A stretch of DNA of 32,483 nucleotides. It comes from Candidatus Pacearchaeota archaeon (GTDB lineage: Archaea > Nanobdellota > Nanobdellia > Pacearchaeales > GW2011-AR1). The notes beneath the pieces were generated by a model that saw nothing but the letters and a program-made list of their open reading frames with translations, was not told the DNA's origin and did not search any database. Both the position numbers and the translations under genes were made by a program. The stretch lies in contig PBZO01000001.1 of NCBI GenBank assembly GCA_002731115.1, positions 1,069-33,551 of the forward strand. Reading direction: 5' to 3'. Positions 3,241-18,652 of this stretch are shown in pieces. The stretch's first letter is position 1; the number at the start of each line of letters is the position of its first letter.

Positions 3241-4860
3241 TTATTTATCTCGCATTTTTATAACCATAGAAATAATAGCTACTATTAAAATTACATTAAT
3301 TATTCCAATTCCCCATAAATACCTATTATCCCCCATAGATTCTGAAAAATTAAATCCCGATTTTTCAATTAAAACTGAAACAGGTTGTTTTGATACTATT
3401 TCATTTCCTGAAAGGACTTCAACATTAAATAATTGATTTCCTAAAGCATCTTTATTCACATTGAATGTGAATGAAACATCTTTTGATTCTCCTGCACCTA
3501 AAACAATTATATTTAGATCTTGTGTAACAGAAGATGCCCAATTAGTATATCCTGTTGCTTTTACTGTATAAGTTGTTAATTCATCTCCAGTATTTCTGAT
3601 AACTGATTTTACTATTAATTCTTCTCCTGCTTTTGCATCTGATTCAAGACTTGCAGAAACTAAAACTTCTGGTGAACTTGTTGGAGTTGGAGTCTCTCCA
3701 CAACTTCCTTCTACTTTAAATGGAACATTAAATTCCGAATCATCATCATTACTATTTTCATAAACTTCATCATCTTCGTTATAAACCCAAAACTTAATAG
3801 TATGGAATTTTTCTTGAGCATCTGTTGGAATCTCTACACTTGTAGAAAGTTTCTCATTTTCTAAAGAATCAATATCTCCAAGCATGACATCTTGATCTAT
3901 TCCTAACTCCTTATTATAAATAGTAACATAAACATCTTCTTGATCATCTTCTCCGATATTCCAAACATCTGCTGTAATCTGCATTTCACTTCCGCATGAA
4001 GCTACATCGGGTATACTAATATCATCAAGAATAACAAAATCATTTTCAAGTGTTATTGTAATATCCTCTGAATTACTAATACATTCCATACTCTCTCCAA
4101 GATCATCGCTATAAGCCTTAACATATAAAACATAATCATCCCCCATATCTGTATTTAGATCATCAGGATCTACTTGAAAATCAACTTTTATTGTTTCTTT
4201 TTTTCCATCCTTAAGATTAAAGTTACTTTCTTCATTATCAATTACCCATTTATCTTCTTTTGTACTATAAACTCCCCATTCAACAACAACATCATCTATA
4301 TCTTCATCACCATCATTATCAACTCTAATATCAACTTCAATTTTATCGAGAGGATACCACTCATCATCACTATCTCCGAATCCCTTTGTATTATCAGGAT
4401 TTACTTTACCAAAAGTCAAATTTCCTCCTTGATTCCCTGATGAACAATAATTCTGATTATCAAATGTAAGTGTAATACTTGTTGTATTAGTATCAGTAGA
4501 GTTTGAAGCATTAGCTGCAGTGATTGTAATTGCTTTAGTATTCTTCTCAAGATTAAAATCACTCGAGATAGCAGTTGTATTTACCTTAAATGTTGCTGTC
4601 TTAGTACCAGTAATTGAAGTTGTATTTAATAATGAGAGAGTTATTGTATTCCCATCCTCATCAGTAATTGTTGCAGTTGAAGGATAACTAAAATTAGAAC
4701 TTATAGTTGAATTTACTATAAAAGTAGTAGAATTTGAAGATTTAGTAAGAGTTGATGGGGAAGTTGGAGTAGAAATTGTGAGTGCTGCAAAAGCAAAACC
4801 AATGCATAATATTAGTATTAAGATACTTGCATTAAATAAATTAGATATTTTACCTTTCAT
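3241..4860 (-). CDS. Putative S-layer / cell-surface glycoprotein with CARDB/Ig-like repeats
   Basis: Signal peptide (..CIGFAFA), Ser/Thr-rich region with many N-x-S/T sequons, three acidic beta-rich repeats with N-x-G motif, C-terminal TM followed by KMRDK. Confidence 0.8.
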   Translation of the reverse strand: MKGKISNLFNASILILILCIGFAFAALTISTPTSPSTLTKSSNSTTFIVNSTISSNFSYPSTATITDEDGNTITLSLLNTTSITGTKTATFKVNTTAISSDFNLEKNTKAITITAANASNSTDTNTTSITLTFDNQNYCSSGNQGGNLTFGKVNPDNTKGFGDSDDEWYPLDKIEVDIRVDNDGDEDIDDVVVEWGVYSTKEDKWVIDNEESNFNLKDGKKETIKVDFQVDPDDLNTDMGDDYVLYVKAYSDDLGESMECISNSEDITITLENDFVILDDISIPDVASCGSEMQITADVWNIGEDDQEDVYVTIYNKELGIDQDVMLGDIDSLENEKLSTSVEIPTDAQEKFHTIKFWVYNEDDEVYENSNDDDSEFNVPFKVEGSCGETPTPTSSPEVLVSASLESDAKAGEELIVKSVIRNTGDELTTYTVKATGYTNWASSVTQDLNIIVLGAGESKDVSFTFNVNKDALGNQLFNVEVLSGNEIVSKQPVSVLIEKSGFNFSESMGDNRYLWGIGIINVILIVAIISMVIKMRDK

Positions 4861-7245: not shown

Positions 7246-7318
7246 TGGGGCTACCAGGATTTGAACCTGGGTCGCGAAGTCCCAAACCTCGAAGCTTACC
7301 ATACTGGCCCATAGCCCC
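7246..7318 (-). tRNA. tRNA-Pro(UGG)
   Basis: Minus strand GGGGCTA..TAGCCCCA acceptor, anticodon arm CGAGG-TTTGGGA-CTTCG, T arm CCAGG-TTCAAAT-CCTGG; no intron, CCA not encoded. Confidence 0.93.
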
Positions 7319-14274: not shown

Positions 14275-14625
14275 CTACAAATCAATAATCCCTTCTTTTG
14301 TTAATGCTGCAAATCTTACCCCAACTGGCAAATTAATCAATGCAGAAATCAATGCCATATGTTCCTTACCATCACCCGAAGCTAAACTTAATGCAACTTC
14401 TGTCCCTTTAATTTTTCCCTTTAGCTTTTTTACAAATTCATCTCTTAAATCTTTTAGTTTCTTATCTAGATTAACTTTAATAAATTCTGTTTTTCTATCA
14501 GCTCTAAACTCTTTTGCAAAATCATCTCCTAAAAGAATTATATTATCCCATTCCCCATATTTTACTAATCCTGCAACTTGTGCCCATGTTCCTTTTCCAG
14601 TTGACAATAATGCAATTAATTCCAT
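14275..14625 (-). CDS. Hypothetical protein, CARF-like Rossmann topology
   Basis: 116 aa alternating beta/alpha; EVALSLASGDGKEHMAL resembles the CARF strand-4/helix motif; TATA 30 nt upstream. Confidence 0.75.
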   Translation of the reverse strand: MELIALLSTGKGTWAQVAGLVKYGEWDNIILLGDDFAKEFRADRKTEFIKVNLDKKLKDLRDEFVKKLKGKIKGTEVALSLASGDGKEHMALISALINLPVGVRFAALTKEGIIDL

Positions 14626-14674
14626 TTCTTAAAAAAAGAAGATTAGTTTTTAAAAATTGTTGTAGTAAGAAACT

Positions 14675-14682
14675 TTTATAAA
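14675..14682 (+). promoter_or_regulatory. TATA box of rpl1-rplP0-rpl12 operon
   Basis: AGAAAC-T-TTTATAAA (BRE-TATA); predicts a TSS near 14704-14705. Confidence 0.65.
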
Positions 14683-14703
14683 CCTTAAGTCTCTAAAATT
14701 TTC

Positions 14704-14763
14704 ACCGTAGAACTACATCATTAAGAAATATTTTCTATATTCTTGATGCATAATGTAGGAGGT
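14704..14763 (+). promoter_or_regulatory. Structured rpl1 5' leader, candidate uL1-binding autoregulatory element containing the SD
   Basis: ACC/GGT stem, GTAGAA-vs-GA asymmetric loop, CTACAT/ATGTAG stem, CATTAAGAA/TTCTTGATG stem; the 3' strand carries AGGAGGT 4 nt before the ATG. Confidence 0.7.
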
Positions 14764-14767
14764 AAAA

Positions 14768-15397
14768 ATGAATTTAAAAGAAGACCTAAAAAAAGCTTTA
14801 ATTGAATTAAGAAAAGAAAAAGAAAGAAAATTTAATCAAACTCTAGATTTAATTGTAAATCTTCAGAAATTTGATTTAAAAAAAAATAATATAAATTTGT
14901 TTATAACTGTCCCTCACAAAATTAAAGATAAGAAAATTTGTGCATTTTTAGAAACAAAGAATAATAATATTGAGACAATAACAGGTAATGAATTTAAGAA
15001 ATATAGTGAAAAAAAAGCGTTAAAAAATTTAGTTAAAAAATTTGATTTCTTTATTGCCCAAGCAAGTTTGATGCCAAAAGTAGCAACATCCTTTGGGAGA
15101 GTGCTCGGGCCTGCAGGAAAAATGCCTTCTCCTCAATTAGGGATTATTATGAATGTTAGTGATAAAACAATAAATGATCTAAAAGAAAAAATAAATAATA
15201 CTCTTAAAATAAGGGTAAAAGAGGCTAGTATAAAATTACCAATTGGAAAACAAAATATGAAAGATGAAGAGTTAATTGAAAATATTCTTATTGTCTACAA
15301 TACTATCTTAAAAGCACTATTAAAAGAAAAAGAAAACGTAAAAAATATAGAATTAAAATTCACTATGACTAAACCTCAAAAGATAAAGATAAGATGA
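14768..15397 (+). CDS. rpl1: 50S ribosomal protein L1 (uL1)
   Basis: RKFNQTLDLIVNL, DFFIAQASLMP, GRVLGPAGKMP. Confidence 0.97.
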   Translation: MNLKEDLKKALIELRKEKERKFNQTLDLIVNLQKFDLKKNNINLFITVPHKIKDKKICAFLETKNNNIETITGNEFKKYSEKKALKNLVKKFDFFIAQASLMPKVATSFGRVLGPAGKMPSPQLGIIMNVSDKTINDLKEKINNTLKIRVKEASIKLPIGKQNMKDEELIENILIVYNTILKALLKEKENVKNIELKFTMTKPQKIKIR

Positions 15398-16257
15398 AAA
15401 CAAAAACAGTAGAACATATTCCTGAAAAAAAAACAAAATTAGTTAAAGAATTAATTGATTTAATTAAGAATAAAAAAACAATATTGATTGCATCTATAAA
15501 AAATCTTCCTGCTTCTCAATTCCAAGAAATTGGAAAGAAATTAAGGGATAAGGCAATAATTAAATTTCCTAAAAAGAACTTAATATTTAGGTCAATTGAT
15601 AATTCGGGTAATGAAGCAGTAAAAGAACTTAAAGAACAAATTAAAGATAGTATGGCAATTTTATTTTCAGACTTAGATAGTTTTGATTTAGCTTTAGAAC
15701 TCGTAAAGAACAAGAATCCTGCAAAAGCAAAAGTGGGGCAAGTTGCACCATTAGATATTGAAGTAGAAGCAGGAATGACTGATTTAATCCCTGGACCGGC
15801 AATAAGTGAATTAGGGGCAGTTGGAGTTAAAACAAAAGTAACAAATAGTAAATTAGAAATTATCAGTAATAAGATAATTGTGAAGGAAGGAGAAAAAATA
15901 TCACAAGGTGTTGCAGATGTTATGGCTAAACTAGATATTAAACCATTTTCTATAGGGTTTATCCCTTTATCTGCATTTGATACTAAAGAAGGAAAATTAT
16001 ACCTAGATATTCAAATAAATAGGGAAGGAACACTAGAAGAATTGAAATCTGCTTATGGAAAATCCTTGCCTTTTGCTGTGGGAATTGGATATATTTGTGA
16101 AGATACTATTAAATTATTAATTGGAAAAGCAGGAATGCATGAAAAAGCTTTGGAAAAAATTTTAGATAAAAAAGAAGAAAAAACTGAAGAGAAAAAAGAG
16201 GATATAAAATCAGAAGAGAATACTCAGGAAAATAAAACTGGGGAGGAAACTAAATAA
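15394..16257 (+). CDS. rplP0: 50S ribosomal protein L10/P0 (uL10)
   Basis: PAKAKVGQVAPLDI, PGPAISEL; follows rpl1. Confidence 0.96.
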   Translation: MKTKTVEHIPEKKTKLVKELIDLIKNKKTILIASIKNLPASQFQEIGKKLRDKAIIKFPKKNLIFRSIDNSGNEAVKELKEQIKDSMAILFSDLDSFDLALELVKNKNPAKAKVGQVAPLDIEVEAGMTDLIPGPAISELGAVGVKTKVTNSKLEIISNKIIVKEGEKISQGVADVMAKLDIKPFSIGFIPLSAFDTKEGKLYLDIQINREGTLEELKSAYGKSLPFAVGIGYICEDTIKLLIGKAGMHEKALEKILDKKEEKTEEKKEDIKSEENTQENKTGEETK

Positions 16258-16258
16258 A

Positions 16259-16555
16259 ATGGAACTAATATACAGTGCTTTATTACTTCATAAACTTGGA
16301 AAAGAAGTTAATGAAGAAAATGTGAAAAGTATTGTTGTAGCTGCAGGTAGCAAAGTTGATGAATCGAAAATCAAATCTCTTGTTGCCAGTTTAAAAGGTG
16401 TTGATATAGCAAAAGAATTAGAAAATGCTAGTTTAGTTGCTGCTATGCCTACAAGCGGAAATGATTCTGGAAAGGCTCCAGAAAAGAAAGAAGAAAAACC
16501 TAAAGAAGAGAAAAAAGAAGCTACAGCAGAAGGGCTTAGTGCACTTTTTGGATAA
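16259..16555 (+). CDS. rpl12: 50S ribosomal stalk protein P1/L12
   Basis: MELIYSALLLH..; C-terminal EGLSALFG. Confidence 0.97.
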   Translation: MELIYSALLLHKLGKEVNEENVKSIVVAAGSKVDESKIKSLVASLKGVDIAKELENASLVAAMPTSGNDSGKAPEKKEEKPKEEKKEATAEGLSALFG

Positions 16556-18571: not shown

Positions 18572-18652
18572 CGCCCCCACCCCGAATCGAACGGGGATGC
18601 CCCGAAGGACCCGGATCTCAAGTCCGGTGCAATACCATTATGCGATGGAGGC
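18572..18652 (-). tRNA. tRNA-Ser(UGA)
   Basis: GCCTCCA/TGGGGGC acceptor plus G discriminator, anticodon arm CCGGA-CTTGAGA-TCCGG, long variable arm GTCC-TTCG-GGGC, T loop TTCGATT. Confidence 0.95.

Follow-up and report, generated by a model that had tools for sequence, protein, structure and literature searches.

A probable uL1 autoregulatory operator with permuted strand order in the rpl1 leader of a Pacearchaeota archaeon

The leader of the rpl1–rpl10–rpl12 operon was analysed in a 32,483-nucleotide (nt) stretch of DNA from Candidatus Pacearchaeota archaeon (GenBank assembly GCA_002731115.1, contig PBZO01000001.1, positions 1,069 to 33,551 of the forward strand; assembly size, 0.48 Mb). This whole stretch is called the window below, and its own numbering is used throughout. 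An initial annotation of the window had proposed that the leader carries a binding motif for ribosomal protein uL1, with its strands in reversed order, which buries the Shine-Dalgarno (SD) sequence of rpl1. The rpl1 gene (14768–15397, plus strand; ATG at 14768–14770) encodes a uL1 protein of 209 amino acids (Pfam PF00687, E = 5.6e-33). It is followed on the same strand by rpl10 (P0/uL10; 15394–16257), whose start overlaps the rpl1 stop codon in an ATGA, and by rpl12 (P1 protein; 16259–16555), which has its own GGGGAGG upstream. Opposite the promoter region of rpl1 lies a divergent open reading frame (ORF) of 116 amino acids (14275–14625, minus strand), and the spacer of 142 nt between this gene and rpl1 holds the hairpin. 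The TATA box of the operon, TTTATAAA (14675–14682, plus strand), ends 21 nt before the first base pair of the hairpin.

The hairpin occupies positions 14704–14763 of the plus strand and consists of three helices, designated P1, P2 and P3. Helix P1 is formed by ACC (14704–14706) and GGT (GGU in RNA; 14761–14763). Next to it is an asymmetric internal loop, the long side of which is GTAGAA (GUAGAA; 14707–14712) and the short side GA (14759–14760). Helix P2 pairs CTACAT (CUACAU; 14713–14718) with ATGTAG (AUGUAG; 14753–14758), and a bulge of 4 nt, CATA (CAUA; 14749–14752), separates its 3′ strand from P3. The last of these, together with its apical loop, spans 14719–14748 and is a stem of 9 base pairs (bp) in which CATTAAGAA (14719–14727) pairs with TTCTTGATG (14740–14748), including one G-U pair. 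All of the parts named in the initial annotation, from P1 through the loop and the bulge to P3, were recovered in place. The 3′ end of the element lies 4 nt upstream of the uL1 ATG. The last base of the P2 3′ strand, the GA and the first two bases of the P1 3′ strand make up GGAGG (14758–14762, plus strand), the likely SD sequence, which is found 5 nt before the ATG. It is complementary to the 3′ end of the 16S ribosomal RNA (rRNA), ...GGAUCACCUCCU (CCUCCU), in which the anti-SD is intact.

The minimum-energy fold of 14699–14775 contained all three helices and had an energy of −15.1 kcal/mol. The shuffled sequences had a mean of −8.93 kcal/mol (standard deviation 2.62; z = −2.35), and 3 of 200 shuffles were equally good; taken alone, the fold energy was only moderately unusual. 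In the folding model P1 was worth −1.4 kcal/mol, and its pair probability varied with the flanks from 0.45 to 0.91. The pair probabilities were at least 0.94 throughout P2 and for seven of the nine pairs of P3, and the two apical pairs of P3 had values of 0.71 and 0.41. Moreover, G14758 of the GGAGG stayed paired even when P1 was absent.

The conservation of the element was evaluated in relatives of the archaeon. The uL1 gene was present in 60 of 61 relatives, and the same design was found behind a TTTATAAA-type box in all 30 of the relatives' uL1 loci that were examined; in two relatives (L034 and L057) runs of N upstream of uL1 made the leaders unreadable. The 30 leaders were aligned with MAFFT, blind to structure. 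In this alignment 90.6% of the cells were paired, compared with 74.4% in shuffles, none of 500 of which reached the observed value, and with 33–60% when the partners were slid against each other. Thirteen of the 18 pairs changed on both sides; such changes were counted in 94 cells, where 29.9 were expected. A covariance model, R1, was then built from the 30 relatives and used for a whole-genome search that was blind to genes. Exactly one match per genome was obtained in 81 of the 151 genomes of the order. Matches came from 76 of the 105 genomes of the archaeon's own family and, in two other families, from 2 of 24 and 2 of 5; the remaining 16 genomes gave none. The best 30 matches were all directly upstream of uL1. 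Among named Pacearchaeota, Woesearchaeota and Nanoarchaeota metagenome-assembled genomes (MAGs), R1 matched 79 of 80 uL1 loci, the 80th being without upstream DNA. The archaeon's relatives bear these same three names, which places it among the DPANN archaea. The position of the element was thus exclusively before uL1. When 64 leaders were aligned to R1, 93.8% of the cells were paired and 14 of the 18 pairs were compensatory, values that lean towards the model because the alignment was fitted to it. Conservation and covariation, which the initial annotation had named as the check on its hairpin, proved strong, here through the two-sided changes in the 30 leaders and, across the class, through the P1 register described below.

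The same 64 leaders revealed which positions were held constant and which were exchanged as pairs. The outer pair of P1 was AU in 27 leaders, GC in 19 and UA in 6; the middle pair was CG in 50 and UA in 13; and the inner pair was CG in 62 of 63. The closing pair of P2 was C-G in all 64, and the second pair was UA in 39 and CG in 24. Changes on both sides occurred in all nine pairs of P3. The long side of the loop had a modal length of 7 nt (34 of 64) and ranged from 3 to 11 nt, with five leaders having loops of 3 nt; its first base was G in 53 leaders and its last base was A in all 64. On the short side GA was found in 51 leaders, AA in 6 and UA in 5, so that the second base was A in 62 of 64. 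The bulge read CAUA in 30 leaders and CAUU, CGUA, CGUU or AAUA in the rest. P3 is specific to the family. Its apical region (14728–14739) is a family-specific module resembling AUA..UUCUAUG, two positions of which were at least 90% conserved in the 30 leaders; the module is absent outside the family.

These patterns bear on a rival account of the element, a 5′ hairpin that works independently of any protein. Such a hairpin would sequester the SD in part or protect the 5′ end, giving a fixed low translation rate or stabilising the messenger RNA (mRNA), and its likeness to the L1 site would arise only from the common GGAG. The stability of P2 and P3 on their own and the pairing of G14758 without P1 are in keeping with this account; furthermore, GGAG-like strands are expected near start codons, and hairpins that sequester the SD are generally common. 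It leaves unexplained, however, the invariant last A of the loop, the frequent G at the first loop position, the A of the GA and loop lengths that cluster around 7 nt like those of the known operators. Nor does it account for the single copy per genome, placed before uL1 only, in a setting where most mRNAs lack a leader. A protein-independent hairpin was consequently considered improbable.

The leaderless character of most mRNAs was derived from the promoters. In 361 long ORFs, TATA-like boxes peaked at −30 to −26 of the ATG, with 64 matches, while no other 5-nt bin had more than 14; 14 long ORFs had the strict TTTATAAA beginning at −29. This peak indicates that most mRNAs probably have no leader and begin 21 nt past the box. 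The gap between the TATA box and P1 in the rpl1 leader is equal to the gap between TATA box and ATG of the leaderless genes (21 nt), and hence the transcription start of the operon was predicted at A14704 (plus strand). In 77 relatives with a recognisable box, the gap between the box and P1 was 21 nt in 50, 22 nt in 21 and 23 nt in 3, and the first base of P1 was a purine in 73. The mRNA therefore most likely begins with P1 itself, as judged from promoter spacing. The initial annotation had placed the start at the 5′ end of the structure, and the predicted position agrees with it, being A14704 and not a site downstream of 14712. In a mostly leaderless genome the 63-nt rpl1 leader would be an exception, and the GGAGG is plausibly required by an rpl1 mRNA that does have a leader.

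The likeness of the element to the rRNA site of uL1 was explored in the genome's own 23S rRNA, which was located on contig 4 and whose L1 stalk, at about 3339–3440 of locus L031, was aligned to the archaeal large-subunit (LSU) model. The stalk has the order H76, a 9-nt junction CAUAGCAUA, H77 strand AGUAG, GA, H78 (G-C...hairpin...G-C), a 12-nt linker AAACAUGUAAUA, H77 strand CUACU and H76. The GA between H77 and H78 is shared by the archaeal LSU consensus. Leader and stalk are identical in their GUAG-GA-G and A-CUAC strands. P2 would correspond to H77, with its 5′ strand (14713–14718) as the counterpart of the H77 3′ strand CUACU and its 3′ strand (14753–14758) as that of the H77 5′ strand AGUAG. 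The GA at 14759–14760 would stand for the identical GA between H77 and H78, and the 6-nt loop strand at 14707–14712 for the linker from H78 to H77. P1 would represent the first pairs of H78, its ACC being the counterpart of the 3′ strand and its GGU that of the 5′ strand at the base of this helix. The bulge is likewise on the H76/H77 side and on the same strand as the 9-nt H76/H77 junction; at the corresponding place the 23S rRNA reads GCAUAGCAUAAGUAGGAG, which GCAUA..GUAGGAG of the leader resembles. The two RNAs differ in that the linker has 6 nt in the leader and 12 in the rRNA, and the junction bulge 4 nt instead of 9. In addition, H78 is cut to 3 bp and opened in the leader, and a capped 9-bp stem takes the place of H76. 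P3 accordingly closes off the H77-like helix at the end that adjoins H76 in the rRNA.

The H77/H78 junction of the rRNA has been classed as a composite kink-turn (Kt-77/78), and the loop in the window also permits a reading in which a 3-nt bulge, GUA, precedes a GA that faces the GA of the short strand. Both points would suit a kink-turn bound by L7Ae or by another kink-turn protein in place of uL1. This reading leaves over an additional invariant A before P2, and the shift of register that it requires clashes with the covarying helix and its invariant C-G closing pair. The loops vary from 3 to 11 nt, and those of 3 nt are too short for a bulge together with a GA; the G of the short strand is missing in 13 of the 64 leaders, and the gene context is uL1, not L7Ae. 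A 3-nt bulge with tandem sheared G-A and A-G pairs was thus not conserved in the leaders, and a kink-turn of this kind was regarded as very improbable.

The leader was also compared with the bacterial operators of uL1. All known uL1 sites are described in a 2024 review (PMC10931766) as irregular stem-loops with an internal bulge. The consensus of the bacterial L1-binding RNA, as it appears in the alignment of Fu et al. (2013; PMC3616713), is GUGG-GA-Gggu..loop..gaccC-G.U.UA..aA-CCA.C, with the structure line <<<<--<<<<...>>>>------>>>>. The E. coli rplK leader, read directly, has the order GGG-GA-GCCUC-uca-GAGGC-GUUAUUA-CCC. Both the element and the E. coli rplK–rplA operator are located in the transcript of a uL1 operon and mimic H77/H78 of the 23S rRNA. 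Two helices are arranged around an asymmetric loop, in which GA faces a linker of 6–7 nt beginning with G and ending with A, and G-C pairs close the loop at both ends. According to the alignment paper, the contacts critical for L1 are made by the loop and by the pairs on either side of it (Fu et al., PMC3616713), and these positions are the most conserved ones in the leaders: the C-G pair on the P2 side of the loop is invariant (64 of 64) and that on the P1 side nearly so (62 of 63), the last A of the loop is likewise invariant (64 of 64), and the A of the GA is present in 62 of 64.

The strand order separates the two groups. In the bacterial operators the chain runs through the GA strand before the linker strand, and it is the H78-like helix that ends in the hairpin; in the leader the linker strand precedes the GA strand and the H77-like helix is capped (ACC-GUAGAA-CUAC...GUAG-GA-GGU). 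In E. coli the SD sequence is downstream of the operator; here the SD is itself one strand of the operator, and the H78-like helix is open, being made from the 5′ end of the mRNA and the SD. The reversed order claimed in the initial annotation was borne out against the own 23S rRNA, the published bacterial alignment and the E. coli rplK leader alike. On this evidence the circular permutation is real. The element lies in a uL1-operon transcript, it has a 2-nt GA opposite a linker within the 5–7 nt known for such loops (6 × 2 here), its closing pairs are G-C, and it resembles the H77/H78 of its own rRNA; the rRNA-like strand order, with the GA strand 5′ and the hairpin on the H78-like helix, was not found. 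Judged by the same features, all structural characteristics of L1 operators are thus present save the strand order, and what is new is the permuted order.

The operon also contains rpl10 and rpl12 after rpl1, and the bacterial rplJ leaders are described as binding L10(L12)4 (review PMC10931766). A P0(P1)n stalk complex (uL10/P1) could on these grounds be the ligand of the leader, as in the bacterial L10 leader. The core of the element, however, matches H77, the GA and H78 of the own L1 stalk and not the GTPase-associated centre. No Rfam leader family was matched at E up to 10 either, a result of little weight. The stalk complex was therefore judged a highly unlikely ligand.

Among archaea, the rpl1–rpl10–rpl12 layout is given for Methanococcus in the alignment paper, which states that the uL1 site 'directly precedes rplA' (PMC3616713). 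The Methanococcus system and the present leader would have in common an archaeal rpl1–rpl10–rpl12 operon that is regulated by uL1 through a mimic of the rRNA. The site of Methanococcus vannielii and M. jannaschii, attributed to work of Hanner et al. in 1994, Kraft et al. in 1999 and Nevskaya et al. in 2005, reportedly shows the strand order of the rRNA and is situated within the coding region, close to its start. Shimmin and Dennis are said to have noted an rRNA-like region in the Halobacterium L1e leader in 1989; a literature search for this leader gave nothing relevant.

Outside the family P3 was reduced, to a loop of 5–22 nt in other families of the order, with a simple P2 hairpin in other orders. 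Because P3 shrinks there and R1 loses power, a pattern of the core was applied to the upstream regions of uL1 instead. The pattern consisted of a 3-bp P1, a loop of 3–11 nt ending in A, a P2 with a C-G closing pair and no fewer than 4 bp, the dinucleotide N-A and the 3′ strand of P1. The class-level sample comprised the uL1 upstream regions of 60 of 98 genomes from about 50 other families. In 52 of these 60 loci the 3′ end of the core, with a loop of 5–8 nt, was 0–12 nt before an in-frame uL1 start, compared with 3.8% of shuffles. GGAGG was read in 41 of the 52, and four of the matches (L208, L211, L212 and L245) were doubtful. The typical form was CCC-G....A-CUA(C/U)..hairpin..(G/A)UAG-GA-GGG. 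With a loose version of the pattern and a match allowed anywhere, 55 of the 60 loci matched in the sense direction and 9 of the 60 in the antisense direction. A search of the same loci for the rRNA-like strand order gave only scattered matches (18 of 60 versus 7 of 60 antisense), with no clustering at the start.

Since the pattern itself demands pairing, the location was repeated without the use of P1. The formal counting of P1 pairs on a MAFFT alignment was impossible because the loop lengths differ at the class level, and a register test was used in its place. The locator that was blind to P1 placed 47 of the 60 loci, and the Watson-Crick complement of the 3′ triplet was in register in 40 of them. 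Twelve loci had a triplet other than GGG. Ten of these had their own complement and none had CCC; the permutation mean was 3.15, and none of 2000 permutations reached 10.

On the basis of these observations, positions 14704–14763, taken as the first 60 nt of the rpl1–rpl10–rpl12 mRNA, are likely to be a uL1 autoregulatory operator that copies the docking site of the 23S L1 stalk with its strands joined the other way round. The overall interpretation of the initial annotation is supported in this respect, and those of its refuting conditions that could be examined by computation all left it standing. In the mechanism envisaged, the three 5′-terminal bases of the transcript would pair as P1 with the last bases of GGAGGU, with P2 and P3 stable and P1 marginal. 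The value of only −1.4 kcal/mol for P1 suits a switch that is clamped by a protein. When 23S rRNA is limiting, free uL1 would bind the core of P1, loop and P2 as it binds H77/H78, and would thereby clamp P1. The GGAGG would then be locked in the complex, and the 30S subunit could not engage it. The translation of rpl1 would fall, and so would that of rpl10, which would be coupled to it through the ATGA overlap. Newly made 23S rRNA would compete uL1 away.

The step from binding to repression was weighed against other outputs. If uL1 binds the leader, it may act by controlling mRNA decay from the 5′ end, or by a block after 30S binding, as reportedly proposed for Methanococcus, instead of occluding the SD. 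In 6 of the 30 family members (L004, L015, L019, L022, L024 and L029) the element was 20–52 nt from the ATG, so that direct masking of the SD cannot hold everywhere. In this AT-rich sequence a short frame with a near-cognate start that ends at or overlaps the main ATG was seen in L004, L015 and L024, and none was seen in L019, L022 and L029; such a frame could thus span the gap in only three of the six. Other outputs are also favoured by the E. coli operator, which is separate from its SD, and by P1, which draws on the extreme 5′ end of the RNA. Against such outputs stands the placement across the class: the 52 of 60 loci that end 0–12 nt before the start and the GGAGG in 41 of them show the spacing typical of an SD. 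An output other than SD occlusion was accordingly held to be rather unlikely, though less so than a hairpin that needs no protein, and repression through the SD would be the probable outcome of uL1 binding.

The distant elements of these six family members also weigh against the operator proposed here, and several further observations do so as well. The G of the GA was replaced by A, U or C in the 13 leaders mentioned above, the 3′ strand was GGAGG in only 41 of the 64 leaders, and P1 has only 3 bp. A GGAG-containing motif so close to a start codon might owe its conservation solely to a role as SD. In the genome as a whole, 4 of 365 long ORFs had GGAGG between −16 and −3, and 5 of 365 had it in a control window, a comparison in which the use of SDs is possibly understated by crude start calls. 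The use of SDs is thus rare in the genome, and the SD role of the GGAGG in the leader is assumed. The protein itself deviates: in the window (15360–15394; uL1 residues 198–203) it has Thr-Met-Thr, where three solved archaeal L1 proteins have Thr-Met-Gly, a triad that contacts the RNA. Among 30 uL1 proteins of the family the triad was TMT in 20, TMS in 8 and TMG in 2. Furthermore, P2 of the leader was not found to track H77 of the relatives' own 23S rRNA in any of the six discordant cases. In five genomes (G017, G022, G025, G016 and G036) P2 was of the CCAU or CCAC type with GUAG/CUAC in the own 23S rRNA, and in G034 the situation was the reverse; this result is listed here, but it is neutral.

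The distribution in the class Nanoarchaeia raises a wider question about the origin of the element. We suggest, tentatively and with somewhat less than even expectation, that the permuted operator is an old and general archaeal solution, one that builds the rRNA mimic from the SD as one strand and the 5′ end of the mRNA as the other, and that is present across this class. In the family studied here the element may have expanded until it resembles the entire L1 stalk on a small scale, with an H76-like stem and the junction bulge included. If the wider suggestion were true, no other cis-regulatory RNA known from DPANN archaea would be conserved as widely, and nature would here provide an example of a protein-binding RNA motif whose function survived circular permutation.

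The novelty of the element was assessed by searches of databases and of the literature. The covariance models of Rfam 15 gave nothing relevant in 14300–15400 at E up to 10. As a control, the E. coli L1 operator in the rplK leader (locus L263, 2403–2432) was searched in the same way and gave no match at E up to 1. Since Rfam misses this established operator, its silence on the leader says little, and the class of L1 operators seems to be missing from Rfam. The Rfam search suggested in the initial annotation, therefore, returned no family and was uninformative. That annotation knew of no description of such a leader, and our literature search, which left bioRxiv preprint supplements outside its scope, likewise found no description of a permuted uL1 operator or of a uL1 operator in DPANN archaea. 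It also found no cis-regulatory RNA described for DPANN archaea. Eckert and Weinberg (2020; PMC7247131) write that 'only a handful' of archaeal cis-regulatory RNAs are known, and the 20 ribosomal leaders set out in that article include no L1 leader.

The element provides a concrete RNA of 60 nt, together with a likely ligand, from organisms that so far resist culture on their own. If uL1 binds it as proposed, the recognition core of uL1 tolerates circular permutation, which bears on how the operators of ribosomal proteins evolve from mimics of rRNA. The operator would also be tied directly to the SD in genomes with mostly leaderless mRNAs. In addition, the covariance model shows where the rpl1 operon starts and where its promoter lies in hundreds of MAGs, and it could be submitted to Rfam.

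A few features of the surroundings were recorded besides. In many relatives the same gene start, reading '...ttccat', was found right upstream of the rpl1 TATA box, which indicates that the synteny is kept. The rpl11 gene is not adjacent to the rpl1 operon. The sole Rfam matches at gathering score in the window were two transfer RNA genes, at 7246–7318 and at 18572–18652, on the minus strand.

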